64,000 nucleotides of DNA from an uncultured Pseudomonadota bacterium (GTDB taxonomy: Bacteria; Pseudomonadota; Gammaproteobacteria; Steroidobacterales; Steroidobacteraceae). Below, in pieces: positions 7,891 to 58,138 of the stretch (the stretch's first letter is position 1; the number at the start of each line of letters is the position of its first letter). A program made the translations under genes and the position numbers. The notes under the pieces were generated by a model. The model saw nothing but the letters and a program-made list of their open reading frames with translations. It had not been told where the DNA came from and made no database searches. The stretch is from the NCBI GenBank assembly GCA_963743625.1, contig CAVUQM010000018.1, positions 856 to 64,855 of the forward strand, in the 5' to 3' direction.

Positions 7891-9950
7891 CTAGGCGGCG
7901 GCCAACCGTCTGTACTTGGCCGCTCTCGCGGGGTCTCCCATCAGCTGATACAGATCGATCGCTCGTCTGAGTGCGTCGGTTCCGTAAAGTGTCGAAGGGC
8001 TCCACTTCCTGAGCAGCACCGGAATGCTAGAACTCAAAAGGGCGTCGGCTTCAACGAACTTCCTCTCACCGGTCAGACACTCGGCCTTGACGTTGTCGAG
8101 CAGAGCCATGCGCCAAGGATCGTCAGGATAGCGTTCCGCCATTAGCGGTCGGGCGTTCTCGATCCGTGCCAGGCCATTTCAAAGTGACCACGGCGGCACT
8201 CGAGGTCCGCGATATCGACGAGAATCGGAGCATGCATGCGACTCTTGTTTTCGATGGAAGCCTTCAGACCCTTATCGAACGCAGTTGCCGCGGCGTCGTA
8301 GTCGCCCTTTCCCATTCGCGCCAGTCCGAGGTTGGTGAACGCGAATATCAGATCGCGCTGGGTCTCATCCTGCTGCGCAAGCTGGATGCGGACCGCCTCC
8401 TCGAGCATCGGTATTGCGCGGTCGAAGTCGCGCCGCTCGACGTAGATCAGTGCCAGGTTGTTCATGTCGACGGCAACGTCCGGGTGATCCTTGCCAAGAA
8501 CGCGGGTGTCAATGGCGAGCGCGCGCTGGTAGAAGCTTTCAGCGCGGTCGTTTTCGCCGCGGAGATACGCGACAGCGCCCAGGTTGTTCAGCGTCTCTGG
8601 GACCAGCGGATGCGTTTCGCCGGAGAATCTCATGCGCGCCTGCAACGCCTGCTCAAACAACGGCTCGCTCTCGGCCAGTTCATTGGCATTGGCCTTGGCA
8701 GCCGCGAGCTGCTCGAGAATGCGGACCTGCAGCTCGTTCGGCGGCTGCCCCTGCTGCAGCGCAGATGCGCGTCGGAAAAACTCAATCGCCTGCGCAACCT
8801 TGTCTTGGTAGCTGGCGACGGTACCGCGGCCCAGGAGAATTTTCGTTTGCAAGGAGCGATCGGGTGGGTCGAGGGCATCTGCCAGACGCTGGGCCTGCGT
8901 ATACAAGGTGTCTGCCTGCTCGTCTCTGCCGCGCAGCTGCTCGACGAAGGCAAGGGCTGCCGTCTCTCGCGCCAGCGCCGCGGAGTCCTGCCCTTGGGTC
9001 GCATGGGCACCCTCGAGCAAATGTACTGCAGGTTTGTATAGCCCCAGCCCCGTGTAAACCTCACCTAGGGTCGTCGACAGGGCGGCCCGTACCGCTGGCT
9101 CGTCCCGCAGTGACCCTTCGATCTGGGCTGCACCGCGGTCCAGAATGGAGCGCGCGGTTACGGAATTTCCCCGCGCCTCGCTCGGGTTGGAGACCTGAAA
9201 CAGGGAAATGAGAAAATCGGCGGTGCGTTCAGCGGTTTGCGACTTCTGCACGGCCAGCTGTCGCTGCTTTACCGCCTCTTGCCGTGCGAGCAATGCAGCG
9301 ATGGCAAGCGATGCGAATACCACGCAGCCGACGGCGCCAGCGAGTCCGATCGCCGCCAGGCGCCTGCGCTGTCGCGCGTGATCGCGATGCCGGAGGTCGT
9401 CAAACCTTACTCCAAGCAATGCCGCGATGATCTTGAGCTTGGCGTTATGGCGGGAGTCGCCGCCTGGCCGAAGGTCCGCAGCGAGTGGCTCAGCCGTCGG
9501 CTCGGCAGTTGACTGCCCTTCGACAGCCGTCCCGAGGAGAGCGGGCGGAAAGCATTCCAGCGATGTTGAGAAACCGCGCTGTGAAGCGAGGGGTTCGCCG
9601 GCCACTACTAGACATAGGATCTTCGACGCTTTGCCTTGGTCCTTGAAGACCTGGATCTCTTGGTTGACCCAGCGTGACGCTGCAGCCAGCGGCGAGCAGA
9701 CGACGATGAGGAAGTCGCTTTCGTCCAGCGCCTTGCGAAGGGTTTCTCCCAGATCGGGCGAGCTTGAGAGCTCGTCGCGATCGATGAACACCGGACGTAA
9801 GCGTGACCGCAGCTGAGTTTGTGCGCTTCCGAGTCGCTTGTGCGGTACTCGGTAGCCTTCGATGGCGCGGTGCAGCCAGCGGGCCACCTTGGCATCCGCG
9901 TGTTGGTAGCTGATGTACGCGACGTAGCGCTGGGCTGCAGATTCGGTCAC
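7891..9950 (-). CDS. TIR domain - TM helix - TPR repeat protein (one apparent frameshift)
   Basis: N-terminus YVAYISYQHADAKVARWLHRAIEGYRV..VFIDRDEL..DFLIVVCSPLAAASRWVNQEIQ is TIR-like. The TM helix is LAAIGLAGAVGCVVFASLAIAALLA, followed by many TPR units. ORFs 8142..9950 and 7891..8142 join as ..RGHFE-NGLARIENARPLMAERYPDDPW.. if the T3 run at 8177-8179 is really T4. Confidence 0.8.
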
Positions 9951-25268: not shown

Positions 25269-25384
25269 TTTCGGCGTAAACGCGCCGCGTTTCCCCCATG
25301 GGAGGAGGGCGACCTCGCCTGCGCGGCGCAGATTTGGTGCAGGGCGGACACAACATACGTAGAGAGGCAGTTTATAGTGTGCAT

Positions 25385-27537
25385 ATGAAGACTCGGCGCT
25401 ACGTTTTGGGGATGCTCGGGGGAAGTGTGCCCGCGTGGGCGACGACTTCTCTGCCGCTATCAGCCTTATCTGCCTTGGTCGCGGTGGACGATCCCAACGT
25501 CAAGGTCACCGAAAATCTGTGGATTGTGATGTCCGACGGGACGCGGCTGGCCGCGCGGCTGTTCCTGCCGGCTACGGCGCAGGCACGACCGGCCGGCGTC
25601 GTGCTTGAGTATCTTCCCTACCGCAAGCGTGACAGCTATCGCTATCGGGACGACGTGGCCGGGCCGTTTCTGGCCAAGGCGGGCATCGCGCTGATCCGGG
25701 TCGACATCCGTGGGACCGGAGATTCCGACGGCGCCATGGCGGATGAGTATTCCGACCAGGAGCAGGCCGATGCACTGGCAGTCATCGATTGGATCTCCCG
25801 GCAGCCTTGGTGCAATGGCAAGGTCGGGATGCGCGGCATTTCCTACGGCGCGTTCGCCGCGCTGCAGGCCGCCGCGAAGGCGCCTCCGGCCCTCGTGGCG
25901 ATCGTTTCGACCTGCGGCACCGAGCAACGGTACCTGGATGACATCCACTACAAGGGCGGATGCCTGATCAACGACCAGTTTGTCTGGGCCATGGAATGGC
26001 AGGTCATCATGCGCGCACCACCGGACCCGCGCATCGTGGGCACAGCGCGGTGGCGTGCGCTGTGGCGCCAGCGTCTCGACGCGACCGCCCCCATGACCAT
26101 CCTCTGGAACGAACACCAGACACTGGATGACAAATGGAGCGATGCCTCAACCCAGGACTACAGCCGCATCCGCTGCGCGATCTACAACATCGGCGGCATG
26201 CTCGATCCCTACGTACCCTCGGTGACCCGCATGATGGAGCGGGCCCCGCAGGTCGAGCAGAAGGCACTCATCGGACCCTGGACCCATAAGTGGCCAGGCT
26301 ATCCACAACCGGACGGTCACTCAGGCAAGCCCACCGATGCGGCCAACGGCGTGCCAGGTCCGGGCGTGGACTGGCTACCGGTCGAAGCCGCTGGTGGCGC
26401 CACTGGCTGCTCGGGGAAGCCAACGGCATCATGGAAGAGCCGCGCTTCTGGGCCTTCCGCGAAGACAAGCCCGCCGGCGTGCGCTTCCCACACGATACTG
26501 ACGGGGCCTGGATCTCCGAAGCCAGGTGGCCCAGTGCCGACATTGGCTATCAGAAACTATTTCTGAATGGCGACGGCCTCAAGAGCGTGGCCGGCGCGCA
26601 GGTGCTGCTCCGGCACGCTACGGACCTGACGGTAGGGTTCGCCAACCGGTGGGCTGCAACCTCCGGAGACCCGACGACCTGGTGGCGTGACCAAGCGGCG
26701 GATGATGCGCGCTGCTTGCGCTTTGACTCGGCACCGCTCGAGGCGGCTCTGGATGTCGTGGGTGAGCCTCTCTTCACCCTCAGGGTGCGGGCAAACAAGC
26801 CGGTCGCAAAGCTATGCGTGCGCCTGACCGAGGTCACCCCTGACGGGCGCTCAAACTTTCTGAGCTACGGGCTCCTGAACCTGACCCACCGCGACAGCGA
26901 CGTGGAACCCACGCCGCTCGTTCCTGATACCGACTACGACATACAGATCAAAGCGCACTTCTGCTGCTACCGCATTGCGCCCGGCAGCCGTATCCGCGTG
27001 GCGCTCAGTGAAACCTGGTGGCCCGTCGTATGGCCCTCCCCGGAACCGGTGGTACTGCAGGTGACCGCAGGCGCCTCGCACCTGGAGCTGCCGGTCCGGC
27101 CTACGCGCGATGGCGAAACGCCGCCGTTCGAGATCTATCGCGAGCGCTACGCCGGTGCGGCTGCCGCGCCGGCTCCCTACGCAGACCCGCTGGCGGGCGT
27201 TCAGGTCACCGGCGAGCCCGGTCACCGTACTTTCACCCTGGTCGAGGGCACGCTCGACCCGCAGGGGGAGAAGATTCCCGGCGTGGGCACCGTGTATCGC
27301 GAGGCGTATCGCCTGCGCCGCTCAATTCGTGAGGATGATCCGAATTCTGCGCAGATGGAGGCGGAGGCCATCAACACCTACGAGCGCGGTGAATGGCGAA
27401 TCCGGTTGCGGGCGCACAGCCTGTGCCGCTCGACCCCCACGCATTTCATCTGCTCAGAGACCTTCGAGGCGTGGGACGGTTCGCGCGTGGTGTACTCGCG
27501 TACCTGGAACAAGAAGATAGCGCGTCGCCTGGTGTGA
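25385..27537 (+). CDS. CocE/NonD-family hydrolase (X-Pro dipeptidyl-peptidase S15 fold), one apparent frameshift
   Basis: Tat-like MKTRRYVLGMLGG. VMSDGTRLAARLFLP, VLEYLPYRKRD, GKVGMRGISYGAF (nucleophile elbow). ORFs 25298..26566 and 26290..27537 join as ..VDWLPVEA-RWWRHWLLGEANG.. if CC at 26388-26389 is really CCC. Confidence 0.8.
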
Positions 27538-27576: not shown

Positions 27577-29469
27577 TCACTCGAAGTGGAACAGGTCGAA
27601 CAGGTCGCCGATCGCCGGCATGTTGCCCGGTACGTAGGGCGTCGGTCCGCCGGGTTGCGGATCGGGAAGGTTATCGCGGCTGCGAGTGCTAAGCGTCTCG
27701 CCTAGTTCCCAGTTGCGCTCGACAAACTTCACGAAGGATGAATGTTCGGCGTACACGTGGCTGACGTGGCCGCCGGTGGCGAACGGCGACACGGCAACCA
27801 GCGGAATGCGCGGGCCGGTGCCGAAGAAGTCGACCGGCTGAATGAAGCCTGAGTCGTAGAAGCCCCCGCCCTCGTCTACCGTTATGAGAATGGCGGTCCG
27901 CGACCACTGCGCCGGATTGCTCTGCGCCAGCGTGACGATGTTCTTGATGAAGGCCTCGAACAGCGTCCATTTCGAGCTGTGCGGATGCCCGTCGAGCAAT
28001 TCGTCGGGCTTGACGTACGCGACCGCCGGCAGCGTCCCGTTCTTGAGGTCGGTGAACAGATCAAGCACGTCGCGCATGTGATCGGCGATCAGGGACGGGT
28101 AGCTCGCCTCGAATTCGAACGGGTTGCAGATGGTGCAGAAGTAGCCGTCAAACGGGCCGCCCGTGCCCTCGGCGTCGAAGGCGCCGCCGTAGTACCTCCA
28201 GGGGATGTTGTGCGCGTCCAGCAGGTCGCCGATGCTCCTTTGCATCGTCGGCGGCATCGTGAGCCCCCCGGTGGCCGCGCCCTTGGGCGTCAGCGCCGGA
28301 GGGATATTGACCACCGGCCAGTACTGCCCGGGCCCGCAGTGCGGATCCACGGCATAGGGCAGCGCCTTCAGGTAGTCGAGAATCGGCGCCACGCCAGGCT
28401 GAGTCGGGTCCGAGCAGTTCACCCACTCGGCCGAGCGCGAATAGAGGTTGAGAGTCCCGGGCTGCGGATCGGGATTGAAGATGTCGATCGCGGGCGGCGT
28501 CGCGACGTGTCCGGCGCCGTCGCTGTAGAAGATCTGATCGGCGAAAGCAAGCGGCATGCTGTCCGGGCCGGTGCCACCCATGACCGGCTGGTGGTAGTTG
28601 TCGCTGATCGTGTACTCGTCGGCCAACGACTTGAAGAGCGGCGCATCACCCTGCTGCATGTTGAAGAACGCCATGGTCTGACCGGTATCATGCGGAGTGC
28701 TGCCGGGCGGCGTGTCGTACGTCGTCGTGACGGCGGACTGCAGGTCGTGCAGGCAACCGGTGGGATTTGACGCTGAAATGTGCTCGGCATCGACGGCGCA
28801 GTCGACCTGCTGCCACATCTGGAAGAACTGGTGGATGGTGTCGGCAGTGAAGGCGTCGAAGGGCATGTGGGGGCCGGTCAGCTGGAACGGTCCGGGCGGC
28901 AGCGTCATGACGTTGCTGATGCGCGTGTCCGGGCCGAGCGTAAAGCTCAGCCCCGTACCACCGGTGCCAAACAGATACTGATCCTCGGGTGGCAGCTCCG
29001 GATCCCCGCCTGGAATATTCAGGATGTTGGCGTCGGAGGAGACTGCCGGTACGTCGCCGACATCGGGCGGCGGCAGAGTGGCGTAAAGGTTCTTGTCCTT
29101 GAGGTCGGCGCTGCTGAAGTACTTGCCGCCGTTGGGTGCCGAGGTGATCCGGTATTGATACGCCTGCGCAAAGTTTGGCCCCGGCGTGCCGTCGGCGTTT
29201 ACGATGCGCTGCGACAGCAGGTTAAGTACGCTCTCCCCCGCAGTCTTCGGCACGTAGGTCGCGAAGATATGGTCGAAGCCGCGGTTCTCGCCGACGATGA
29301 TGATCACGTGTTTGATGGGTGTGGCGGTCTTGAGGGCAACCACCGCTGCGCCGGGATCGGTCGGCGGAGGAGGCATTGTGGCAGACGGCGACGAGCCGCC
29401 GCCGCAGCCCGCGCAGAGCGCGAAGAGCGCCATCGTCGGAAATGCATGGAGATTCAGTCGCCGTTCCAT
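27577..29469 (-). CDS. Phosphoesterase-family lipoprotein (PF04185; phospholipase C / acid phosphatase AcpA-like)
   Basis: ATG 29469 gives MERRLNLHAFPTMALFALCAGCGG (lipobox). IKHVIIIVGENRGFDHIFATYVP is the family signature. The 2-kb ORF is intact. Confidence 0.8.
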   Translation of the reverse strand: MERRLNLHAFPTMALFALCAGCGGGSSPSATMPPPPTDPGAAVVALKTATPIKHVIIIVGENRGFDHIFATYVPKTAGESVLNLLSQRIVNADGTPGPNFAQAYQYRITSAPNGGKYFSSADLKDKNLYATLPPPDVGDVPAVSSDANILNIPGGDPELPPEDQYLFGTGGTGLSFTLGPDTRISNVMTLPPGPFQLTGPHMPFDAFTADTIHQFFQMWQQVDCAVDAEHISASNPTGCLHDLQSAVTTTYDTPPGSTPHDTGQTMAFFNMQQGDAPLFKSLADEYTISDNYHQPVMGGTGPDSMPLAFADQIFYSDGAGHVATPPAIDIFNPDPQPGTLNLYSRSAEWVNCSDPTQPGVAPILDYLKALPYAVDPHCGPGQYWPVVNIPPALTPKGAATGGLTMPPTMQRSIGDLLDAHNIPWRYYGGAFDAEGTGGPFDGYFCTICNPFEFEASYPSLIADHMRDVLDLFTDLKNGTLPAVAYVKPDELLDGHPHSSKWTLFEAFIKNIVTLAQSNPAQWSRTAILITVDEGGGFYDSGFIQPVDFFGTGPRIPLVAVSPFATGGHVSHVYAEHSSFVKFVERNWELGETLSTRSRDNLPDPQPGGPTPYVPGNMPAIGDLFDLFHFE

Positions 29470-29841
29470 GTCGGCGTGCATCCCTGGGTGGAGCAATCGG
29501 TGTTCACGTCTGCCGGTTTGCGCGCGACTCCCTCTGGAGCGGCAGTCATTAGGCGCGCGCACCGCTGCCGTGTCAAAGGCCCGCGACTCCCGCCGTTCGC
29601 ACGCGTCCTGTACCGTCACGCTCGGCCAGCCAGTCCACCTGGTATCTGCAACGACGCGCGGGTCCTGAAGAATGCCGAGAGCAGCAGTCCGAGCTGCCGC
29701 TCGTCGCGTCCCAGCTTACGGATGAGGGGTATAGTGTGTTCCGCGCCCAATTCGTCTCACTCGAACGGATGCACTTCGACGCACTCAAACGCCTGCTCGA
29801 CTGGTCGGCGGCGCTCCGCGGTCCCAATAGTTAAGGAACGA

Positions 29842-29864: not shown

Positions 29865-30003
29865 CGCACTGCGCAATGCACTTAGAAAGCCGTGATCCGC
29901 GAGACCGACGTCATCTGTTCGGGCAAGCTTAGTGCACTGCCTGGGCGCCACAATCTGCATGCAGCGCCCGGCGCTGCAGGTCGCTGGAGGTCCCTGGACT
30001 ACT

Positions 30004-30020
30004 GTATCGCTATGCGATAC
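30004..30020. promoter_or_regulatory. Candidate HigA operator (GTATCGC-tat-GCGATAC)
   Basis: Perfect 17-nt palindrome ending 10 nt before the higB ATG at 30031. Confidence 0.5.
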
Positions 30021-30030
30021 ACTATGCTCC

Positions 30031-30312
30031 ATGCCCATCCGCAGTTTCCGGCACGATGGTCTGGAAAGATTTTTCCGCACCAAGAGTAAGGCGGGGATCC
30101 AGCCCAAGCATGCGCAGAGACTGAACCTCCAGCTAGGTAGGCTGGATGCTTCGATCCAGCCTCTCGATATGAATCTTCCCGGCTGGTACTGGCACCCTCT
30201 CACGGGCAAGGACGCGGGCCGCTGGTCGGTGAGGGTGAATGGGAATTGGCGCGTCACTTTCACATTTGAGGGCCGGGATGCTGCCCAAGTGGATTACGAG
30301 GACTACCATTGA
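30031..30312 (+). CDS. higB: HigB-type toxin (plasmid maintenance system killer, RelE/ParE superfamily)
   Basis: MPIRSFRHDGLERFFRTKSKAGIQPKHAQRLNLQLGRLDAS..DMNLPGWYWHPLTGKDAGRWSVRVNGNWRVTFTFEG.DAAQVDYEDYH matches the HigB family nearly position for position. Confidence 0.85.
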   Translation: MPIRSFRHDGLERFFRTKSKAGIQPKHAQRLNLQLGRLDASIQPLDMNLPGWYWHPLTGKDAGRWSVRVNGNWRVTFTFEGRDAAQVDYEDYH

Positions 30313-30325
30313 GCGGAGTCACATT

Positions 30326-30793
30326 ATGAGTGAAATGCACAGCCCGCCGCACCCGGGCGCGATTCTCGCCGACACAGTGCTAGGCCAGGATGGCGGCAAG
30401 TCTGTTTCTGCCTTCGCGGATGAGCTTGGTATCTCCCGCGTAACTCTGTCGCGTGTGGTGAACGGCCGCGCCGCGGTGAGCGTGGATATGGCGCTCGCGC
30501 TTGCAGAGGCCACCGGCACCTCGCCGGAATCGTGGTTGAACATGCAGACCTCCTATGATTTGTGGAAGGCAAGAGTCGCACGACGTAAGACGCTTGCGTC
30601 CTCAAAACCAATCCGTGCTCGCGCAATCCGGGAGGCAGTTGCAGCCGAGAGGCAACCCCTCTCTCGCCAGACTTCTTCGGAGCGTTCTGGAGTGCGGGGT
30701 TGGACTCGGGACACCGCAACGGGGATGGTGGCCTTTAACCGCGCCCCGAGCGCTCGCAGTAGTCGCGTCGCCGTCGCCCGTAAAAAGAAGTAA
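30326..30793 (+). CDS. higA: HigA-type antitoxin (XRE HTH) with an unusual ~55-aa C-terminal extension
   Basis: HPGAILADTVLG..SVSAFADELGISRVTLSRVVNGRAAVSVDMALALAEATGTSPESWLNMQTSYDLWKA. ATG 30326 lies 14 nt after the higB stop. Confidence 0.85.
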   Translation: MSEMHSPPHPGAILADTVLGQDGGKSVSAFADELGISRVTLSRVVNGRAAVSVDMALALAEATGTSPESWLNMQTSYDLWKARVARRKTLASSKPIRARAIREAVAAERQPLSRQTSSERSGVRGWTRDTATGMVAFNRAPSARSSRVAVARKKK

Positions 30794-31129: not shown

Positions 31130-31771
31130 TTAATTAGCCGCCTCAAGTATCTTCTTTTTCTGGGCGTCGAATTCGGCATCGGTAATGATGCCCTTCTTTC
31201 GAAGGTCATCAAGCTTCGTCAATTCTGAATAGATATCCTTTTGTGCTGAAGTTGCAGGAACGTCCGCATGAGCTCCGGGGTCGGGCCTCCCCACACCGAC
31301 ATTCGCAGCCTGCACATTCGCAGCGCCCACGGGGCTAGAGAGATCTTGAAGCATTCCATCAATTACCGGATCGAGCTTGGACGCGGTCCCGGCCCATTTT
31401 CCGAGGTCGAGTCCCCCATGTCCGTTGAGATGGTAGTGCCCACTGCCGATTACCACCCCGCTCTTAGTTAGTGTAAGTTTCGCGTCCACCATGTAAGGAG
31501 CGACATCCCACCATCTGTCAGCAGTGTATTCAAGTACATATTGACACTGAGGAGGGAGTGCTGCGTCCTTCACCAGCATTGTTTGGATTCCGTGCTGCTG
31601 AAATCTGGTCTGGATGACGCTAACTAGATCATCCACGTTGTTGTCAGGGTTAAACCTGATGCACGTAAGTGTGATTACTTCTTTCGTGCTGACGGGACTG
31701 GTCTCCAACGTGGTACAGCTGCTGAGTACCAGACCAGTGGCAATCATCGGAGCGAGAGCAGATCGGCGCAT
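31130..31771 (-). CDS. Lipoprotein with C-terminal SHOCT domain
   Basis: ATG 31771 gives MRRSALAPMIATGLVLSSCTT (lipobox). The C-terminus DIYSELTKLDDLRKKGIITDAEFDAQKKKILEAAN is a SHOCT motif. Visibly AT-rich. Confidence 0.65.
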   Translation of the reverse strand: MRRSALAPMIATGLVLSSCTTLETSPVSTKEVITLTCIRFNPDNNVDDLVSVIQTRFQQHGIQTMLVKDAALPPQCQYVLEYTADRWWDVAPYMVDAKLTLTKSGVVIGSGHYHLNGHGGLDLGKWAGTASKLDPVIDGMLQDLSSPVGAANVQAANVGVGRPDPGAHADVPATSAQKDIYSELTKLDDLRKKGIITDAEFDAQKKKILEAAN

Positions 31772-32071: not shown

Positions 32072-34100
32072 GTGAATAGGCCAGTGGTGGGCAACCCGGG
32101 TCATGCCACCGGGCGCGCAACTATCCGCCCACTTTCCCGTGCTTGGTTCGAGTCAACCATCGACGGATTCCTAGCGCTTGACGCCGCTACCGCGATTGGA
32201 AACCTCACCGCTCATAGCGACGTCGACGTGGTTCCCGCGCAGGCCGACGCCTGGGGGCAACAAATATTCTGCCTGCAACAGTGTCTCACGGGCTTCTCCG
32301 GATACATTTTTCTTGAATTCAATATTCCGCGAATGGGCCGGAGAATTGATGCGGTCCTGCTAATCGGGCCTCTGGTTTTTGTTATCGAGTTCAAGGTCGG
32401 CGAAAGTCGATTCGATCGAGCGGCTATCGATCAGGTATGGGACTACGCGCTCGATCTAAAGAACTTTCATGAATCTAGTCACGCAGCGTCAATCGTCCCG
32501 GTGCTTGTGGCGACAGCTGCTACGGCGGCCCCACAATTGGATTTTCAGTTCGCTTCTGATCGGGTATGCCAGCCGTTGCGAGCAAGCCCAGATACAATTC
32601 GCGGATTGATAGAGCGCGCCCTCACGCTTGAAGTGCAGGAGTCACGTAGATCAGTCGAATTGGTCCAAAGCGCCGTACCGCGCTCACCCGACCATTATAG
32701 AAGCTGCTCGTGCGCTTTACGCCGAGCATTCAGTAGAGGCCATAGCCCGTAATGACGCGGGCGCCATTAATCTGAAGTCGACTTCCTCCAGAATAGAGGC
32801 ACTTGTCGATCAGGCGCGGGCTGGCAGTCGAAAAATAATCTGCTTTGTAACGGGCGTGCCCGGTGCCGGCAAGACGCTGGTGGGCTTGAACATTGCTACC
32901 CGCCGTCGTGAAGAGAGTCAGCCGACGCATGCGGTATTCCTGTCGGGCAACGGGCCACTCGTCGCTGTATTGCGCGAAGCTCTAACGCGCGACGAACTGG
33001 CACGGCAGAAGGCATCGGGCATTCGGTCGACCCGCAACCGCGTTGCCAATCCAGTCAAGGCATTTATACAGAACGTCCATCACTTTCGGGACGAGGCGCT
33101 ACGCGACCCGTCGCCTCCCAACGATCACGTTGTGATTTTCGATGAAGCGCAGAGAGCATGGGATGAACGCAAGACATCTGTGTTCATGAAGCAAAGAAAG
33201 AACCAACCGAACTTCAAGCACTCGGAGCCGGCGTTTTTGCTCGCCTATATGGATCGGCACCCCGACTGGGCTGTGGTCGTATGCCTTGTGGGAGGGGGTC
33301 AGGAAATTCACACGGGTGAAGGCGGAATTGGCGAGTGGCTCAATGCGATCAACGTAAGCTTTCCGAACTGGGACGTATACATCTCTCCTGACTTGGCCGG
33401 GAGCGAGTACGCAATCCCGGCTTTGGATGTCATCCGGAAGCGGGCAAACGTTCACGTCGACCATAGCCTGCATCTAGCTGTGTCGATGCGTTCCTTTAGG
33501 GCACAGCATGTGTCTGGATTTGTAAAGGAGTTGTTGGATGGGGACCTGAATGGCGCAAGACGTTCCCTCGAAGAACTCGCGCGGTTTCCAATGGCCATCA
33601 CACGTGACCTGAGCCGCGCACGAACATGGATAAGAGATCGAGCGCGCGGAAGTGAGCGCTACGGGCTGCTTGCGTCGTCTAAAGCGCTAAGGCTCAAGCC
33701 CCACGCTATCGACGTTCGCGTAGCTGTCGATCCGGTACATTGGTTTCTGAACGGCCCCACCGACATACGATCCAGTGTATTCCTGGAGGATTGCGCAACT
33801 GAATTCCAGGTGCAGGGCCTAGAGCTGGACTGGACATGCGTCACCTGGGACGCAGACTTGAGGTTTTCAGACGCCCGGTGGAGTTTTAATGATTTCCGAG
33901 GAAGTCGCTGGCAAACGATACGAAATGATCTGAATAAGAATTACTTACGCAACGCGTATAGGGTGTTGTTGACTCGCGCCAGGCAAGGAATGGTGATTTT
34001 CATTCCACCTGGAGATTCCGCAGATCACACGAGGCTGCCTGAGTTCTACGGCGCCACTTTCAAATATCTAACCGACATCGGCATTCCGGTTCTATCTTAG
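32072..34100 (+). CDS. PD-(D/E)xK nuclease-like domain fused to a DUF2075 (Schlafen-helicase-like) P-loop ATPase; one apparent frameshift
   Basis: N-terminus GRRIDAVLLIGPLVFVIEFKVGE (D..ExK). Walker A FVTGVPGAGKTLVGL, Walker B VVIFDEAQRAW, late motif YRVLLTRARQGMVIF. ORFs 32072..32752 and 32628..34100 overlap and join near 32620-32660 (..ERALTLE / IDQSNWSKAPYRAHPTIIEAA..). Confidence 0.8.
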
Positions 34101-34165
34101 GATCGCCAAACCGCTGGCCCCCGCAGCCCTACCGACAATCTGTGTGATCAGGATCCGCAACTACC

Positions 34166-34678
34166 ATGCCGGCACTTCAAAAGCTGATATTCACCGTACT
34201 TCTGGTCGGCGCACTCGTGCTAGTCGCGATGGTCTTTGTGGCACTCTCGCGGCGAGGCAGGCTGCCAGGCGCGCCGTATGAGCGCAGTAAGGGGCTGTTC
34301 TCTCCTGCAGAGCTTCGGTTCCTAACCGCTCTGGAAGACGCCCTCGGCTCTGCCTACCGAGTCTTCGGGAAAGTCCGGGTGGCGGATCTGGCCAACGTGA
34401 AACCCGGATTAACGCCGCGTGTTCGCCGGGCCGCGCTGAATCGAGTCGCGTATAAGCACTTTGATTTCCTAGTTTGTTCAGTCGATACCTGCGAACCGCT
34501 GTGCGCGGTGGAACTCAACGACAGATCGCACGCGGCAAATAGTGTTACGAGGCGAGATATTCTAATCGCTCAGGTCTGTGAAGCGATCGCACTGCCACTG
34601 GTAACCTTTCCAGCCGCCAAGTCCTACGATAGGGGGAACATCAAAGATCGCCTGGAACGCGAGCTGAAGAGGCGATGA
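34166..34678 (+). CDS. DUF2726 domain protein (restriction-endonuclease fold) with N-terminal TM anchor
   Basis: TM LIFTVLLVGALVLVAMVFVAL, then FSPAELRFLTALEDAL..YRVFGKVRVADL..YKHFDFLVC..PLCAVELNDRSH..RRD..ALPLVTF, the DUF2726 core. Starts 65 nt after the DUF2075 gene. Confidence 0.75.
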   Translation: MPALQKLIFTVLLVGALVLVAMVFVALSRRGRLPGAPYERSKGLFSPAELRFLTALEDALGSAYRVFGKVRVADLANVKPGLTPRVRRAALNRVAYKHFDFLVCSVDTCEPLCAVELNDRSHAANSVTRRDILIAQVCEAIALPLVTFPAAKSYDRGNIKDRLERELKRR

Positions 34679-34685
34679 GTAAAGG

Positions 34686-34704
34686 CGGATTTGCAATCCG
34701 TTGG
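34686..34704 (+). repeat. REP-like element copy (CGGAT-ttgca-ATCCGTTGG)
   Basis: The right arm TGCAATCCGTTGG is perfect and the left arm is shortened to 5 bp. Starts 8 nt after the DUF2726 stop. Confidence 0.55.
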
Positions 34705-34843: not shown

Positions 34844-36842
34844 TCAGACGGGAAACTTCAAATCTCGCTCGACGGCCAGAAACCGCGTCTCCTTGCGAAG
34901 CGGTTCCAGGAGTGGGTCAGTCTTGAGGTTCGAGAGTCCCGGGTCCCGCAGGTGTACCGCCGTGTCGAGCCACTGGAGCGCCTCGGCATGGTCGCCCCAT
35001 TGCGCGTAGATCGTGGCGGTATTCGTATGCATCGGCGTCCCCATACGCCGCTATGAATCTCGCCAGGTCCGCCTCCGCGTCTGCATGCCGTCCAAGCTTG
35101 TCGTAGACCATCGCCAGACACTTAAGGCTCAGCCAGTGGTCTCGCTTCGCTTCGCAGGAAGCGCGCGCGAGCTCTAAGTCTCCGAGACCATAGAAAGCAG
35201 TCCCCGATACCCGTAAGCCTCCTTATGGTCGGGGTCGAGACTGATGCTGTCTTCGAATGACGCTGCCGCTTCCTTGTATCGCTGAGCGGCAAGTAATGCA
35301 TAGCCGAGTGCTCTATGGCTGCCTCCGTTGAGCGGATCAAGTACGACTGCACGGCGTGTGGCTGCTATTCCGGCATCGAAGTGTCCCATGCGGGCGGCGA
35401 ACTGACCGCTGAGGCGCAGCACCTGCGCATCTCCGGACGCGAGCTCCTCGGCACGTTTGTACTCCTGCTGTGCGCGAGCAAAGTCAAGCATTCCGAACCT
35501 GAACACGTACGCGAGTGCTGCATGCGCCTCCGCTAGTTCTGGAGCAAGCGAAATCGCGTGTCGCGCATCCAGCTCAGCCTTCTGAAAGTCCGCGCGCATC
35601 GCAACTCCTGTCGCGCCCTGCGCGGCGAAATAGGCGAAGGCAAGCGAGCGAGCCGAGAGCGCTAGCGCGAAGTTGGGATCCTGTCGAATCGCCTCAGTGT
35701 ATTTCACGGGCGATCACGCTTGGAATATCCTGCTCGTCGCGGATCGATTGATATGCCCTCGATGCGCGCAAGTAGGCGTCGAATGCGGCCGGGTTGCGCG
35801 TGCCGCCAAGCTCGATTTTGTGGACTTCATCTCCCAGCAGTGTCACCTGGAGGGCGCTAGCGACCGAGGTACCGCAATCTCGGTCTCCAGTTTCAACACA
35901 TCGCCAAGTCGCGGTCGTAGGTGTGGGACCAGAGGTGAAATCCCGTGACCGCATTGATCAGCTGCGTGGTGACGCGCACGGTGTTGCCCGAGCGTCGCAC
36001 GCTCCCTTCGAGCACCGCCCCGACATTGAGCTTGCGAGCGATCGTGCCGACGTCGGTGTCCTTGCCCTTGAAGGAGAAGGCAGAAGTCCGGGCGGCAACC
36101 TGGAAGTCATTGATCTGAGCCAGGGAATTGAGCAGCTCCTCCGCGAGCCCGTCCGAGAAATACTCCTGCTCCTTGTCCCCGCTCATATTCACGAACGGCA
36201 GCACCGCGATTGAATGCGACGGCGGGGCGAAGGTGGCGGCAGCCGGCGTGAGGGGCTTCGAGATCCAGAACTGGTCAGCAGCGAAGTACACCAGTGCGCA
36301 ACCAGGACCGCTATGAATGTGAGAGAGCACCGGCTTCGACGACCAAGCGGCGTGCGCCGACCTTCTGCGTCCCGCTGCGACGGTGGATGATGGACCCGGC
36401 GGCGACAGTTCGGAGGACAGCAGTCGCTGTACCTGCTCTACGAATTCTGGCGGCGCGTTGCCGCCGGGGTACATGGGGTCCACTGCACGGCTCGAAACGC
36501 GTCCGGGACAAGGGCATCCTGATCTCGGGTGTCGTCAATCAGGATCGGAACCAGAAAGGACTTCTGTTCTGCGATGTGGTGTGTTCGCTCGACGGCGAGC
36601 TTCCATTCGTGGCGAAAATAGCCCTCGAGGCACTATTAGTGTACGGCTTTGAGACTATGTGGGAATAAATAGGGCGCAGGCTTGGATGTTGTGCCGGATC
36701 TTCCGATCCCAGGCGTCCCGCCCCGTAGTTCACTCTGGTCAAAAAACACGTCGATGCCGGCCGCGCGTAGTGCCAGGCAAAGCTTCTGTGCAGCATCCGA
36801 ATCCTCCGACGCGTAGCTCAGAAATACCGATGGTTTAGTCAT
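34844..36842 (-). CDS. TIR domain - TM - TolB-like domain - TPR protein, split into at least six ORF pieces
   Basis: ATG 36842: MTKPSVFLSYASEDSDAAQKLCLALRAAGIDVFFDQSELRGG. The next frame reads ..IVSKPYTNSAS then EGYFRHEWKLAVERTHHIAEQKSFLVPILIDDTRDQDALVPDAFRAVQWT. Then SIAVLPFVNMSGDKEQEYFSDGLAEELLNSLAQI..VLEGSVRRSGNTVRVTTQLI (TolB-like). TPR pieces are 35174..35707, 34917..35111 and 34844..35044, ending ..DPLLEPLRKETRFLAVERDLKFPV. Confidence 0.7.
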
Positions 36843-37163
36843 CGATGGGACCACACCTGACAGATCATCCCAGGCCCTCTTGCGACCTCTATAGCGCCAG
36901 CTTAGCTCAAGTAATTTAGGTCGACCGAATGGGCTGCCAGGTGGCCGGGAATCGACGCGGCCGGCGGCCCGACTGGTCGAGGCTGAACTGTTGGTGGCTC
37001 TGGGGATTGACACTCTCGCTACGACGCGTCAACAGCTGGCACTGGTCTGATCGTCGAGAGTTTACTGGTGGAATGGAGTCGAGTGCGATGTCGAGCGAGT
37101 TCTCAGACCGATCCAGCCGGTCTGTAGCGAGACATAGGTGATCTAGCCAAGAGAGCGGCGGCA

Positions 37164-37186
37164 CCATCGGTGGGGCAATCCGTTGG
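37164..37186 (+). repeat. REP-like element copy (CCATCGG-tggggcaat-CCGTTGG)
   Basis: 7-bp arms with one T:T mismatch. GGCAATCCGTTGG consensus. Ends 119 nt from the IS481-family end. Confidence 0.55.
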
Positions 37187-37304
37187 TCCGCTACGGCAAG
37201 CCTTGTGGCAACAACAGCGTAGGGCGCTCCCGATTCCCAAAGGCCCAATTTCAGTGCACCGGTTGGCGTGACCACAACGTCATAGACCGTGGCTCGGTCG
37301 CTCC

Positions 37305-38246
37305 TGTGGAGCTTCAACAGATTGTTACCCTCCAGGCCGAGCCTACTGATGGGCGGCAGAGAGTTTAGCGCCGAGTGAGGGCGATGCCAGTTGTAGTGGT
37401 GCAGCCAGGAGCCAAGGCAGGCAGTGCGCTCCGAGGAGCTGCAGTAGGCGGCAGCGTAAGCCCGCTCGCGCAAAGAGGTTTGGATGAAGCGCTCCGCTTT
37501 GCCATTGGTTCTGGGGGGTATAGGGTTTAGTGCGCAGATGACGGATTCCCAGTTCGTGGCAGGCGTCGCGGTAGGCGTGGGAGCGATAGGCTGCGCCGTT
37601 GTCCGTCATGACTCGCTCGATGCGCACACCGTGCTCGAGGAAGCGGGCTACGCTGGCTCTGAGGAAGGCGCTGGCGGTGTGGGCCAGCTCGTCAGGCACG
37701 ATGCTGGCCAGAGCCACTCGAGAGGCATCATCGATCGCCACGTGCACGAAGTCCCAGCCGATACCGTGGTTGAGCTTCCCGGCCTTCGATTCCCGGTAAT
37801 GCGATGTCCGATGCCATTGATTCGCCCGAGCTTTTTGATATCCAGATGCAGCAGCTCTCCTGGTCTTTCGCGCTGGTAGCGCTGCACGGGCAACTGCGGC
37901 TGCAGATCTCGCCAGCGTGAGAGGTGCGCACGGCGCAGGATGCGCGAGACGCTGGCGGCGAGAACCCCACACGGCAGCAGATAAAGCGCCCGGTGCGCCG
38001 CTGCTGGCGCAACTGGATCACTTGAGCGCTCAGGGTCGCGGAGAGCTGGCGCGGACTATGCCGCGGCCGGCACGAACGATCCAGCAGGCCCACCGCCCCC
38101 TCAGCGCGATATCGGCGAGCCCACTTCTTCAAGGTCGTTAGTGACACCCCCATCGCCTGGGCAACGTCCAGCTGATGCTGGCCCGCCTCGAGGCGGCCCA
38201 GCATCAGCGCTCGACCCTTGGGTGTCAAACGAGCATTCTTATGCAC
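37305..38246 (-). pseudogene. IS481-family DDE transposase split over four frames
   Basis: Pieces: 37728..38246 (HTH N-terminus), 37648..37893 (RERPGELLHLDIKKLGRINGIGHRITG), 37343..37972 (WDFVHVAIDDASRVA..RVMTDNGAAYRS..HLRTKPYTP) and 36916..37473 (RERAYAAAY.SSSERTA.L..WLHHYNWHRPHSAL). Breaks may be assembly indels. Confidence 0.7.
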
Positions 38247-38351: not shown

Positions 38352-38771
38352 CTATATCCACGGATTGATGACAGATTTCAGGGCCGTATGAAAGTCCTGC
38401 GCGTTGCGTGTCACAAGTGTAAGTCCGTGCACAAGTGCCGTAGCAGCAATCATGGCATCCATGGCACTTATGGAGCGTCCCCGAGACTCCTGGCGCGCCA
38501 CAACTCGGCCCCATTCATCACAGACTGGTCCATCAATCAAGATGATCCGTTGTTCAAACCGCCTTGGGAGTTCCCCCTGCAACCACTCATCAAGCTCGCG
38601 GCGGCGCCTTCCCTGTGGCAGCCGCTCGATCCCGTAACGCAGCTCAGCAACAGTCACGACACTTAGGAAAACCTGATTTTCGTCAGCTTGCGAAAGCCAC
38701 GTCATCAGTCCGGCATTCGGCCGAGGCTTGGTCCACTCGGAAACTACGTTTGTGTCGAGCAGGAAGGTCAC
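38352..38771 (-). CDS. vapC: PIN-domain toxin VapC/FitB-like
   Basis: MTFLLDTNVVSEW..FLSVVTVAELRYGIE..DAMIAATALVHGLTLVTRN carries the PIN acidic residues and pattern. It overlaps the antitoxin stop by 4 nt. Confidence 0.9.
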   Translation of the reverse strand: MTFLLDTNVVSEWTKPRPNAGLMTWLSQADENQVFLSVVTVAELRYGIERLPQGRRRRELDEWLQGELPRRFEQRIILIDGPVCDEWGRVVARQESRGRSISAMDAMIAATALVHGLTLVTRNAQDFHTALKSVINPWI

Positions 38772-39587: not shown

Positions 39588-42533
39588 ATGTTCAATCGCG
39601 CTCAGTTCGCAGCCGTTGTCGCACTGGGAATGATCTGTTGCGCACAGGCCGCACCGCAGAACGTCACGACCTGGCGATACGACGTCTCGCGCAACGGACA
39701 AAACACCATGGAGACGGCGCTCACGCCCGCCAACGTCCGCAGCAACACTTTCGGCAAGCTGTTCTCGTACGCGGTTGATGGCTACGTCTATGCGCAACCC
39801 CTGTATCTCGCTGGGTTATCGGTTGCGGGCGTTTCGCATAACGTACTCTTCATCGCCACCGAGCATGACACCGTTTATGCCTTCGACGCCGACCTAAACC
39901 AGCAGCTGTGGAAGGCCAGCCTGTTGGACACCGCACATGGTGCACCAAGCGGCGCAACCACCGTACCGAGCGGCGACATCGCCAGCAGTGACATCGTGCC
40001 GGAAATCGGCATCACCGGCACGCCAGTCATCGATCCCTCCGGCGGCACCTTGTACGTGGTCTCCAAAACCAAGGAGTCGGGAGCCTACGTTGTCCGTCTC
40101 CATGCCCTGGATGTCACGACCGGAAATGAGAGGCCTGCAAGCCCGGTGGTGATCCACGCGCAGGTCCCTGGGAATGGTGCAGGAACTGCAGCCGGAAGTG
40201 TGGCCTTCCAGCCGCAGTGGGAGCTGCAGCGTACAGGCCTGCTGCTCATGGATGGCAACATATTCATCAGCTTTGGCGCGCACGGCGACAACGGGCCGTA
40301 TCACGGATGGCTGTTCTCCTACAACGCCACTACCCTGCAGCAGATCGCCGTGTTCAATTCCAGTCCCAACGGTCGCGGAAACGGCATCTGGGAGTCAGGC
40401 GAGGGGCTCGCGGCCGACGTGGTGAACGGTGTTCCGCGCCTGTTCATCGTCACCGGAAACTTCTTCAGCACCGGAAACGGACCGTCGTTTCCCAAACTGC
40501 CTTACACGGGCGCGCAGAACTACAGCAACGCGGTGATACGCTTCGATATCACCAACGGCGGGTTCGTGATCAGCGACCAGTGGACGCCGTTCGATTCGGA
40601 TCAGCTCAGCGCATCCGATCAGGATCAGACCTCGGGCGGTGTCCTGCTGCTGCCAGACCAGCCCGGTGCCAATGTTCACGAGATGGTGCAGGTGGGCAAG
40701 AACGGACGGATTGAAGTCATCGACCGGGACAACCTGGGAGGCTTCAATACCAGCTACAACGCCATACCGCAGGAGATCGGCGGACAGATATCCGGACTCT
40801 GGAGTACACCTGCCTACTGGAATAACAACGTCTACTTCTGGGGCAGTGGCGATTATCTGAAGCAGTACCCGCTCAGCGCTGGGCGCTTGGCGGCAACTCC
40901 CTCTGCCAAGGGTACGGTGCAGTCGTTGTTTCCGGGGTCGAGCCCCGTAGTTAGCAGCAACGGCTCGGCAAACGGAGTGCTATGGGCTATCCGCTCAGAC
41001 GGCTATACCTCCAGCACTTCGGCGATTCTTTACGCTTACGACGCGACCAACGTGGGAAACCTGCTTTATGCGAGTTCGCAGAACAGCGCTCGCGATGCCG
41101 CTGGCAAGGCGGTCAAGATGACCGTGCCGATGGTGGTCAACGGAAAGGTCTATGTGGGTGCGCAGGGTGAGGTTGACGTTTATGGCCTTCTCGCAGTCGC
41201 CCCGCCGACTGTGCCGACACCCACTCTGAGCCCGGTCCCGGGCGTCTACTCGAGTGCCCAGACCGTGACAATCAGCGATTCACTCAGCGGCGCTGCCATC
41301 CACTTCACCAGCGATGGAACGCCTCCGACAGTGAACTCGAGCCTCTATTCGGGGCCAATCATGGTGACGAGTTCGCGGACTATACAGGCGATTGCTGTGG
41401 CTGCCGGTCGTAACAACAGTGCAGTAGGCGGTGGCGCTTACACGATAGGTAGCGCGCCCACGATCAACTTCAGCAATGGATTCGCGTCTGTGGCGGGCCT
41501 GACGCTCAATGGCAGCACTGTCAACTCAGACGATAGTCGACTGCAGCTGACTACGGGTGGGGACAATCAGGCAGGCAGCGTCTTTTGGAAAACCCCCGTC
41601 AACGTGCAGAGCTTTGTGTCCGACTTTACTTTCCAGCTTTCGGGCAATTCACCCATTGCTGATGGAATTACTTTTACGGTCCAGAACAGTGCCCCGACAG
41701 CACTGGGCCCGTCCGGAGGGGGGCTGGGTTACGGGCCCGACCACCCGGCTGTGGGCGGCATACCGAATAGCGTGGCCGTGAAGTTCGACGTCTATAACAA
41801 CGCCGGCGAAGGCACCGATTCGACTGGCATTTACGTCAATGGCGCCTCGCCAACAACCCCATCGGTAACACTCGCCAACAGCGGCATTGTCCTGGCCTCC
41901 GGAGATGTCATCAGTGCACACGTTGCCTATGACGGGAAGTGGTTGTACCTCAGCCTACATGACCCGGTTGTCGGGCGGCTGTGGGCCACGCGCTTTGCGA
42001 TCAATTTGCCGCAAACAATCGGCAGCAACACGGCATATGTGGGCTTTACCGGAGGCACCGGTGGCCTGACCGCGAGCCAGAAGATACTGACCTGGACTTT
42101 TGTATCCCAGCCCAAGTTTACCTCGCTGCAATACGACAGCACGAAACTCGCAGCAAAGAGCTCCGGGCCTACGTTCCGCACGTTTACCTACTCAGGCTTC
42201 CCGGACGGGTCTGGGACTATTCTCGATGCAACCAAAGTCGGTGACAGCGTCACTTTCACCGTGAACGTGCCAACGGCCGCCACCTATGATCTGACGGTGA
42301 CGGGGAAAGACTACAACATCCGCGGAATCTGGCAGTTGAGCATCGATGGCACAAATGTCGGACCGACGGCTGATGAGTACAGTGCGACGGAGTCTCTGGG
42401 TACATTCGATGTGGGGCCTATCGTTATCCCAGCATCCGGTAACCACAGCTTCAAGTTCACCGTGACGGGGCGCAACGCAAGTTCGACGGATTACAAGATT
42501 TCCTTCGACATCCTGCGGCTGGATCAGCGCTGA
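39588..42533 (+). CDS. Secreted multidomain protein: PQQ-like beta-propeller, chitobiase/hexosaminidase C-terminal-like Ig domain, L-type lectin domain, CBM-like C-terminus
   Basis: Signal peptide MFNRAQFAAVVALGMICCAQA. DGYVYAQPLY..LFIATEHDTVYAFDA (propeller). PVPGVYSSAQTVTISDSLSGAAIHFTSDGTPPT (CHB_HEX_C-like). LQLTTGGDNQAGSVFW..DGITFTVQN..VAVKFDVYNN (legume-lectin-like). Tail ..GNHSFKFTVTGRN. The 2.9-kb ORF is intact. Confidence 0.75.
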   Translation: MFNRAQFAAVVALGMICCAQAAPQNVTTWRYDVSRNGQNTMETALTPANVRSNTFGKLFSYAVDGYVYAQPLYLAGLSVAGVSHNVLFIATEHDTVYAFDADLNQQLWKASLLDTAHGAPSGATTVPSGDIASSDIVPEIGITGTPVIDPSGGTLYVVSKTKESGAYVVRLHALDVTTGNERPASPVVIHAQVPGNGAGTAAGSVAFQPQWELQRTGLLLMDGNIFISFGAHGDNGPYHGWLFSYNATTLQQIAVFNSSPNGRGNGIWESGEGLAADVVNGVPRLFIVTGNFFSTGNGPSFPKLPYTGAQNYSNAVIRFDITNGGFVISDQWTPFDSDQLSASDQDQTSGGVLLLPDQPGANVHEMVQVGKNGRIEVIDRDNLGGFNTSYNAIPQEIGGQISGLWSTPAYWNNNVYFWGSGDYLKQYPLSAGRLAATPSAKGTVQSLFPGSSPVVSSNGSANGVLWAIRSDGYTSSTSAILYAYDATNVGNLLYASSQNSARDAAGKAVKMTVPMVVNGKVYVGAQGEVDVYGLLAVAPPTVPTPTLSPVPGVYSSAQTVTISDSLSGAAIHFTSDGTPPTVNSSLYSGPIMVTSSRTIQAIAVAAGRNNSAVGGGAYTIGSAPTINFSNGFASVAGLTLNGSTVNSDDSRLQLTTGGDNQAGSVFWKTPVNVQSFVSDFTFQLSGNSPIADGITFTVQNSAPTALGPSGGGLGYGPDHPAVGGIPNSVAVKFDVYNNAGEGTDSTGIYVNGASPTTPSVTLANSGIVLASGDVISAHVAYDGKWLYLSLHDPVVGRLWATRFAINLPQTIGSNTAYVGFTGGTGGLTASQKILTWTFVSQPKFTSLQYDSTKLAAKSSGPTFRTFTYSGFPDGSGTILDATKVGDSVTFTVNVPTAATYDLTVTGKDYNIRGIWQLSIDGTNVGPTADEYSATESLGTFDVGPIVIPASGNHSFKFTVTGRNASSTDYKISFDILRLDQR

Positions 42534-57297: not shown

Positions 57298-58138
57298 ACC
57301 CCGGGTACAGCGTCATCCCGCCATCGACGAAAAGGCTGATGCCGTGCACGTAGTCCGCGTAGTCGGAGCACAGCCATACCGCAGCGTGCCCGATCTCCTG
57401 GGCTTCACCGATGCGTTTGTAGGGGATAAGCTTCATGAGCTCTGCGTAGGCCGCGGGCGTATCCCACGCCTGCATGTTGATCGGGGTGCGGATTGCACCC
57501 GGGCAGATCGAGTTTACGCGGATGCGGTAGGGTGCCACCTCCTGCGCGATGCTCTTCATCATCAGCATCACGCCGCCCTTGGACGCCGCGTAGTTGACGT
57601 GTCCGGCCCAGGGGATGACTTCATGCACCGAGCTGATGCAGATGATCTTGCCGGCTGAACAGGAGACCTGCCGGCGCACGCCGCGGCGCCGGAATTCTCG
57701 TACGGCCTCGCGTGAACACAGAAACTGACCGGTCAGATTAACGCCGATGACCCTGTTCCACTGGGCGAGTGTCATCTCGTGCAGCGGCGCGTCCTGCTGC
57801 AGGCCGGCGTTATTGACGAGGATATCAAGCGTGCCGAAATCCCCAATCACCGCGCTGAACATGGCCTGCACCTCGGCCTCATCCGACACATCGGCCCGAA
57901 CGGCGGCGGCGTTCACACCCTTGTTGCGGATCTCTGCCGCCAGTGACTCAGCCTGGTCCGCGCCGCTGACATAGTTGACGGCCACATCAGCGCCGGCGTC
58001 CGCCAGAGACAGGGCTACCGCGCGTCCGATCCCGGAGCCGCCACCCGTCACCAGGGCTTTTTGCCCGAGCAGAAGTTTTTGCGGCGGCACCGTCGGCATC
58101 ACGGGCTGCGGCAGATGGCTATGGTCGGAAGAGGTCAT
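57281..58138 (-). CDS. SDR-family oxidoreductase (glucose 1-dehydrogenase-like)
   Basis: ALVTGGGSGIGRA, NNAG, and SSVHEVIPWAGHVNYAASKGG (YxxxK). Confidence 0.9.
   Translation of the reverse strand: MTSSDHSHLPQPVMPTVPPQKLLLGQKALVTGGGSGIGRAVALSLADAGADVAVNYVSGADQAESLAAEIRNKGVNAAAVRADVSDEAEVQAMFSAVIGDFGTLDILVNNAGLQQDAPLHEMTLAQWNRVIGVNLTGQFLCSREAVREFRRRGVRRQVSCSAGKIICISSVHEVIPWAGHVNYAASKGGVMLMMKSIAQEVAPYRIRVNSICPGAIRTPINMQAWDTPAAYAELMKLIPYKRIGEAQEIGHAAVWLCSDYADYVHGISLFVDGGMTLYPGFETGG

Follow-up and report, generated by a model that had tools for sequence, protein, structure and literature searches.

Nhi of Staphylococcus epidermidis (SERP2475; Bari et al. 2022) combines a helicase and a PD-(D/E)xK nuclease in one enzyme, for which anti-phage activity was shown (10.1101/776245). 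It prevents the accumulation of phage DNA, probably by attacking replication intermediates (10.1101/776245). The Nhi-like proteins have the domain order of Nhi but no sequence identity to it, and phage protection was shown for them too (Millman et al. 2022; 10.1101/2022.05.11.491447). The PDC systems are candidates, proposed via "guilt by embedding" in BREX, DISARM or type I restriction-modification (RM) loci (10.1101/2024.01.29.577857). The DUF2726 domain was grouped with Vsr and DUF559 in the PD-(D/E)xK superfamily, with links to mobile elements (Steczkiewicz et al. 2012). It was also described as a DNase of the restriction endonuclease (REase) fold, which occurs fused to Abi-type N-terminal domains (Anantharaman et al. 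2013). Here, we compare these systems with two neighboring genes from an uncultured Steroidobacteraceae bacterium, found at positions 32,072 to 34,704 of a 64,000-nt stretch of contig CAVUQM010000018.1 (hereafter the window). Gene 1 encodes a predicted nuclease-helicase, and gene 2 a small membrane-anchored DUF2726 protein. A preliminary description, made from the sequence alone, had proposed the two as a new anti-phage system.

We consider it likely that two separate genes arrived together on a small foreign islet, with gene 1 a probably inactivated PDC-S41 gene and gene 2 a stand-alone gene. By its PADLOC profile match, gene 1 is a frameshifted copy of PDC-S41, an already catalogued single-gene phage-defense candidate. 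Judged from the neighborhoods of homologues, gene 2 is an occasional neighbor of gene 1 and not a conserved partner, and the pair does not appear to be an obligate two-gene system. A frameshifted catalogued candidate beside an occasional neighbor makes this an ordinary decaying defense islet. The features of the two genes are the following.

32072..32644, + strand: N-terminal part of gene 1, in the upstream frame, with the PD-(D/E)xK-like nuclease domain (open reading frame (ORF), PDC-S41 profile, alignment A1)
32315-32395, + strand: nuclease motif codons of gene 1 (alignment A1)
32645..32645, + strand: extra single base that shifts the frame, placed at 32644/32645 (alignments to loci L001 and L082)
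32646..34100, + strand: C-terminal part of gene 1, in the downstream frame, DUF2075 / Schlafen group-3 helicase ATPase of superfamily 1 (SF1) type (PF09848, PDC-S41, A1)
32853-32876, + strand: Walker A motif GVPGAGKT of the gene 1 helicase, invariant in A1
33141-33146, + strand: Walker B residues DE of the gene 1 helicase, invariant in A1
33966-34001, + strand: late motif LLTRARQGMVIF in the helicase part of gene 1
34166..34678, + strand: gene 2, intact, 170 aa, N-terminal transmembrane (TM) helix and DUF2726 domain (Pfam PF10881, alignment A2, AlphaFold2 (AF2) model, hydropathy)
34184-34246, + strand: TM helix of gene 2, residues 7-27 (hydropathy)

Gene 1 spans 32072-34100 on the + strand and is split over two frames (ORFs 32072-32752 and 32628-34100). 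Its N-terminal piece matched the PADLOC PDC-S41 model (PDLC05014, 657 positions) over profile positions 2-171, with an E value of 9.3e-49. The C-terminal piece matched positions 171-653, with an E value of 7.4e-219. Jointly, the two pieces cover the model at full length, from position 2 to 653. In the C-terminal piece, the Pfam family PF09848 (SLFN-g3_helicase, DUF2075) was recovered with an E value of 3.4e-79, over positions 3-353 of the 354 in the profile. Walker A and Walker B are both invariant in the gene 1 family (A1), and so is the LLTR.RQGM core of the late, TRAR-type motif LLTRARQGM.

In the N-terminal domain, the residues E82, D93 and E106 were invariant across 23 homologues (A1), and K108 was nearly so. 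Pfam searches at E values up to 10 gave zero matches for this domain in the window copy, and weak ones for relatives (NERD, E 0.049; PDDEXK_3, E 0.047). The AF2 model of gene 1 was poor overall (predicted local distance difference test (pLDDT) 61.6), with residues 25-185 at pLDDT 70-90. Foldseek searches with this model pointed to SLFN14, Can2, RecD and Upf1. None of these matches was significant (SLFN14 was at the top, with E 0.014, and the probability for the Can2 nuclease was 0.5-0.6), and they were therefore used solely as weak corroboration. Because of the conserved motif residues and the predicted fold, we tentatively assign the N-terminal domain to the PD-(D/E)xK-type nucleases. The domains named in the preliminary description, a restriction-endonuclease-like core and a DUF2075 P-loop domain, thus agree with the PF09848 match and with the motifs, and all the motifs quoted there (RIDAVLLIGPLVFVIEFKVGE, GVPGAGKTL, VVIFDEAQRAW and LLTRARQGMVIF) were found in gene 1. 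Its reading of the nuclease-helicase fusion as a defense-type design stands as well: gene 1 looks like a defense gene. NCBIfam had no model for gene 1 or gene 2, and sequence searches of the PDB gave no match for either. No paper naming PDC-S41 was found in the literature search, and the name did not occur in the text of the PDC supplement.

The break in gene 1 is a single extra base. In the three-frame translation the switch reads ...EVQES, then the lone base c, then VDQSNWS..., and past this base the upstream frame runs on to a stop at 32750-32752. The closest homologue is found in L001 (protein P0001, 86% identical). Over the 2,043-nt alignment of the two genes, the sole indel was one extra window base at 32644/32645, and the identical gap was found in the alignment with L082. 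With the base removed, gene 1 encodes 674-675 aa, and its alignment with 22 full-length homologues (640-774 aa) has no internal gap. The preliminary description had expected a break near 32620-32660 and a repaired product of about 675 aa, and both estimates were accurate. PDC-S41 genes are single uninterrupted ORFs of ~640-680 aa; the homologues are uninterrupted and the window copy is not. Inspection of the break site revealed no homopolymer and no slippery motif, and the homologues are all in frame. Programmed frameshifting is therefore unlikely and, with no hungry-codon context either, was rejected. Gene 1 as sequenced is most likely inactive, with its nuclease domain parted from the helicase by the 1-nt insertion.

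We infer that the frameshift is probably real rather than an artefact. An assembly or sequencing error, with gene 1 intact and functional in the organism, is the less probable explanation, yet one with an appreciable chance of being right. It bears on the pseudogene status of gene 1 only, and not on its identity. It agrees with a frame that is otherwise clean, with no further indel or stop over 2 kb and every invariant residue retained. Indel errors throughout the assembly are also possible because two genes of native composition elsewhere in the window are split, a CocE/NonD hydrolase gene (25280-27537) and a GH63-like gene (58135-60170). Against such an error, the extra base lies outside any homopolymer. 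Moreover, the frame breaks are clustered, with about six in 3.4 kb of TIR-TPR and IS481 remnants and zero in ~30 kb of long ORFs. This uneven spread matches real local decay better than uniform error.

As for the two split genes themselves, the CocE/NonD-type hydrolase gene (+ strand) has its Peptidase_S15 and PepX_C domains in different frames, and the GH63/MGH1-like glycosidase gene (- strand) is split across frames. Either these are assembly indel errors, or they are pseudogenes accumulating in the genome.

Gene 2 starts 65 nt past the gene 1 stop. It matched Pfam DUF2726 (PF10881) with an E value of 8.4e-29 and 100.3 bits, compared with a gathering cutoff of 24.7. Its N-terminal segment is strongly hydrophobic (Kyte-Doolittle 3.09 over residues 7-25), and the AF2 model (pLDDT 93) has a helix at residues 2-29. 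Gene 2 retains each of the 25 columns that are invariant in the subfamily alignment A2, including K97-H-x-D100, E116-L-N-D119 and H122. Top PDB matches in Foldseek were BstEII, TnsA, BsaWI and the REase-like structure 3ijm; their E values were weak (1e-3 to 0.3), with probabilities up to 1.0. Model and matches agree with a restriction-endonuclease-like, PD-(D/E)xK fold. An arginine-rich stretch after the helix suggests that this domain faces the cytoplasm. None of the PADLOC models was matched by gene 2. From its family match and modeled fold, gene 2 is best read as a common stand-alone, membrane-tethered DUF2726 protein and a predicted nuclease of the REase fold. The ORF, hydropathy, AF2 and Pfam results bear out everything that the preliminary description had said of this protein, that is, its start 65 nt downstream, its 170 aa, its one N-terminal TM helix and its DUF2726 domain.

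Conservation of the pair was assessed in both directions. Gene 1 homologues were collected from 80 genome loci, 80 metagenome loci and L001 (161 in total), and their flanking ORFs were clustered. Adjacency was counted in the 135 loci with at least 700 nt of downstream sequence, using a DUF2726 hidden Markov model (HMM) built from 120 gene 2 homologues. A DUF2726 gene adjoined the gene 1 homologue in one of them, L042, from a Patescibacteria metagenome-assembled genome. There, the gene order is as in the window, the gap is 48 nt, and the DUF2726 protein, which shares 25% identity with gene 2, likewise has a membrane helix at its N-terminus. The intact gene 1 homologue of L001 is directly followed by 90 nt that remain of a DUF2726 C-terminus (HMM E 4e-5; DNA alignment score 63 vs 23.9 ± 2.6 for shuffled sequence). 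No DUF2726 gene was present in the next-closest gene 1 relatives (L082-L085, 71-75% identity) or in any of the 20 loci with gene 1 relatives on viral contigs. Conversely, a DUF2075 gene was found beside gene 2 homologues in none of 14 contexts (8 cellular, including the closest relatives at 63-67% identity, and 6 viral). Gene 2 homologues had neighbors as diverse as biotin-synthesis genes, Lamassu, Mrr, transposases and a RES-Xre pair. As far as these loci tell, the DUF2075/DUF2726 adjacency predates the split of the window from L001, appears to have arisen at least twice and is still rare.

It is improbable that gene 1 and the TM-DUF2726 gene form one co-transcribed defense system, in which the helicase-nuclease would be the sensor or motor and the membrane nuclease its partner or effector. 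The two genes do share a strand, a 65-nt gap and a similar GC content at third codon positions (GC3). Because of the DUF2726 remnant in L001, their pairing must be older than the split from that locus, and L042 would be an independent instance with the order kept. Other membrane-anchored REase-fold genes (TM-NERD, TM-Mrr) are often found beside PDC-S41 homologues. The rarity of the adjacency speaks against such a system, and so do the unpaired nearest relatives on both sides, with gene 2 relatives at 67% identity lacking a DUF2075 neighbor. The TM-nuclease neighbors stand in mixed orientations. PADLOC treats gene 1 as a single-gene candidate and has no match for the DUF2726 protein. Furthermore, the genes are not retained together. 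L001 has an intact gene 1 and a dead DUF2726 remnant, and the window has a frameshifted gene 1 and an intact DUF2726 gene. This opposite decay argues against mutual dependence, including that of a toxin-antitoxin type. The new two-gene system of the preliminary description is thus not supported. Two of the conditions under which it was to fail apply: its adjacency is unconserved, and gene 1 alone matches a catalogued candidate, where the pairing had been taken for an undescribed system. Its two genes also decay independently. The survey of other genomes proposed there came out against the pair, and on present evidence this pairing of a nuclease-helicase with a membrane nuclease should not be named a system.

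The wider neighborhoods of gene 1 homologues agree with two separate genes. No fixed partner was found in the 161 loci, where the commonest neighbor family occurred in 13. Recurrent neighbors were Vsr, membrane-anchored NERD, HNH_2, HNH-HIT, MazG-like, membrane-anchored Mrr with a zinc ribbon, HNH_4 and WYL regulators. Many were located at most 350 nt away, in mixed orientations. Small TM nuclease-fold neighbors were TM-NERD (10/161 loci), TM-Mrr with a zinc ribbon (5/161) and TM-DUF2726 (1/161). Examples, in mixed orientations, are found at L056 4666-5673, L102 2288-3211, L101 3176-4054 and L042 7996-8535. Such variable, nuclease-rich surroundings are defense-island behavior and fit the single-gene treatment by PADLOC.

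We see only a slim chance that PDC-S41 nuclease-helicases occasionally recruit interchangeable, membrane-anchored REase-fold accessory partners, TM-DUF2726 in the window and L042 and TM-NERD or TM-Mrr elsewhere. If so, the accessory partner could, for instance, tether or control the helicase-nuclease at the inner membrane, the site of phage DNA entry, and the window would carry a two-component form that is rare in a system otherwise made of one gene.

Two further observations concern the relatives of gene 1. In four loci (L022 2160-5002, L083 388-2567, L084 627-3004 and L085 2-493), a MazG-like gene and a gene for a second DUF2075 protein precede PDC-S41 on the same strand. This second protein carries a C-terminal S24 (LexA-like) peptidase domain, and in three of the four loci PDC-S41 is comparatively close to the window gene 1 (71-73% identity). 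MazG-like, DUF2075-S24 and PDC-S41 may represent a recurrent three-gene cassette. In L082, a gene downstream of the gene 1 homologue (7193-8989, - strand) matches the PADLOC candidate PDC-M41A, and two further ORFs lie beyond its adjoining ORF. The L082 relative is therefore in a defense-island-like setting.

A role outside defense, in which gene 1 would be a conserved nuclease-helicase of DNA repair or replication beside an unrelated membrane nuclease (gene 2), is improbable. In its favor, many columns are invariant, protein identity is 50-65% across phyla, and the defense role of PDC-S41 has candidate status with no paper naming it found. Against it, the distribution is patchy, and the variable neighborhoods abound in nuclease and toxin-antitoxin genes. 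Viral contigs carry relatives, the family was catalogued for its embedding in or association with defense loci, the architecture is that of the validated Nhi and Nhi-like proteins, and the genome of the window tolerates the inactivation of gene 1.

The two genes lie in a stretch of modestly unusual composition. The features around them are the following.

27577-29619: AcpA-like phosphoesterase gene, one border of the low-GC3 stretch
29932-30793, + strand: HigB/HigA toxin-antitoxin pair
31130..31771, - strand: SHOCT lipoprotein gene, divergent upstream neighbor of gene 1, with a C-terminal SHOCT domain (Pfam SHOCT, E 7e-9)
34844-37013, - strand: TIR-FlgO-like-TPR gene, broken into four or more pieces; of the 122 TIR profile positions, the first 38 alone are still in frame
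36916-38246, - strand: IS481-family transposase, in three frames
38352-38771, - strand: PIN-domain (VapC-like) gene
39588-42533: lectin/PQQ-domain gene, the other border of the low-GC3 stretch

The islet thus reads HigB/HigA, SHOCT lipoprotein, gene 1, gene 2, TIR-FlgO-like-TPR, IS481 and PIN. The HigB/HigA pair and the PIN-domain gene bracket it. No BREX, DISARM or RM genes were found near gene 1 in the window, where the neighbors are HigBA, the TIR remnant, the IS481 remnant and PIN. No tRNA genes were found in the window. The locus is a small, much decayed islet of toxin-antitoxin genes, defense-like genes and mobile-element remnants.

GC content was 56.1% in the module of the two genes and 61.8% in the window, which places the module at the 2nd percentile of same-size windows. 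Three of its 44 sixty-nt lines were under 47% GC, and no part of the window came near a mean of 70%. The preliminary description, which set 40-47% against about 70%, had exaggerated this difference. GC3 was 0.55 in the SHOCT lipoprotein gene, 0.58-0.60 in gene 1 and 0.62 in gene 2, compared with 0.69-0.83 in long native genes. The horizontal acquisition suggested earlier thus retains a modest, real GC3 anomaly in its favor, but its strength was overstated. A foreign origin of the islet is plausible, supported by this anomaly, which extends to the SHOCT lipoprotein gene that is syntenic with gene 1 in L082. In that locus, and in no other, a 73%-identical orthologue of the SHOCT lipoprotein occupies the equivalent position beside the gene 1 homologue. 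The SHOCT lipoprotein gene was probably acquired together with gene 1. It was also considered as a conserved partner of gene 1, and dropped, as L082 is the only locus with the two side by side.

Gene 2 is followed by a palindrome.

34686..34703, + strand: palindrome CGGATTTGCAATCCGTTG, one copy of a dispersed repeat, 8 nt past the gene 2 stop

The repeat has the consensus CAACGGATnnGCAATCCGTTG(GT) and matched the window 10 times, at 8 sites, where 0.19 matches were expected (alignment A3). The sites are ~21 nt each and constant in orientation (11543, 14412, 25250, 29846, 30972, 34686, 37168 and 39171). Five of the eight are located at module junctions within the 29.8-39.2 kb islet. Rfam had no family matching the repeat, and CAACGGATnnGCAATCCGTTG was found in none of the 198 loci fetched by that point. 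This host-specific repeat could be a REP-like element or a protein-binding site. The palindrome CGGATTTGCAATCCGTTG has no T-run, and its fold is unexceptional compared with shuffled sequence (z = -1.1), so it is not evidence for a terminator or a transcription unit, but the mark of an intergenic position. A terminator, with no site there in the terminator scan either, was rejected. The hairpin reported 8 nt past the gene 2 stop in the preliminary description thus exists, as a member of a dispersed family, but lends no support to the single transcription unit that was read from it. Integron attC sites were considered as well, since five copies sit at junctions near toxin-antitoxin cassettes. 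They were rejected because the repeats span only ~21 nt, the genes do not share one orientation, further copies are found beside large native genes, and no Rfam family matches.

Several points weigh against two separate genes with a probably dead defense candidate among them. DUF2726 is found directly downstream of gene 1, on the same strand and across a short gap, in two seemingly independent lineages (the ancestor of the window and L001, and L042), which exceeds strict chance. Identity among members of PDC-S41 is 50-65% across Acidobacteriota, Verrucomicrobiota, Planctomycetota, Bacteroidota, Patescibacteria, Chloroflexota and Proteobacteria (loci L002-L161), which is atypical of fast-evolving defense genes. 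The gene 1 frameshift could be an assembly error, as the window has four or more further split genes. The nuclease call for gene 1 draws on motif conservation together with weak profile and fold matches. Lastly, the members of PDC-S41 are putative, catalogued as defense candidates only.

For PDC-S41 itself, a mechanism like that of Nhi can be proposed by analogy. An intact gene 1 product would engage phage DNA replication intermediates by ATP-driven translocation or unwinding, and these would then be degraded by the nuclease domain of the same protein. Sensor and effector would thus be one protein. We infer the defense function, and this mechanism from the architecture. Gene 2 would be one of the small nuclease-fold genes that tend to accumulate near defense genes, and its retention or loss would not depend on gene 1.

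If this reading of the locus holds, little is gained from it beyond a further, probably dead copy of a catalogued candidate in an islet undergoing decay. The PDC-S41 family is still of interest, with the architecture of Nhi, a very wide spread at 50-65% identity across distant phyla, and prophage-like contigs among its locations. About 20 IMG/VR viral contigs carry gene 1 relatives, 28-52% identical. At the sequence level, such conservation is odd for a putative defense gene and implies that the family spread widely by horizontal transfer while strongly constrained. An intact PDC-S41 member bears on whether single-enzyme immunity of the Nhi type reaches well beyond Firmicutes.

Compared with the described systems, gene 1 is closest to PDC-S41 (PDLC05014). 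It covers the whole profile, and the homologues are likewise without a conserved partner gene. The window copy differs in being frameshifted and in lying outside any BREX, DISARM or type I RM locus. Gene 2 keeps the D...ELND.SH core of DUF2726 (PF10881), and its subfamily is a short stand-alone form, ~175 aa with an N-terminal membrane helix and no match to a PADLOC model. With the eukaryotic Schlafen group-3 proteins (SLFN5/11/13/14), gene 1 has the C-terminal helicase domain PF09848 in common. In bacterial and human Schlafens the effector is an RNase (AlbA_2-type) domain, whereas gene 1 lacks this domain and has a nuclease of the PD-(D/E)xK type. Gene 1 has the single-polypeptide layout of Nhi and the Nhi-like proteins, with a C-terminal DUF2075 SF1 helicase, well supported by the PF09848 match and the conserved Walker A and B motifs, behind an N-terminal domain that is a putative PD-(D/E)xK nuclease. 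Sequence similarity to Nhi was confined to residues 69-98 around the P-loop (PADLOC Nhi model, E 0.0012, 15.6 bits), too little for membership; the AbiO and GajB models, like that of Nhi, matched gene 1 around the P-loop only (E ≥ 5e-4). By these profile comparisons, gene 1 resembles Nhi by design and not by family.

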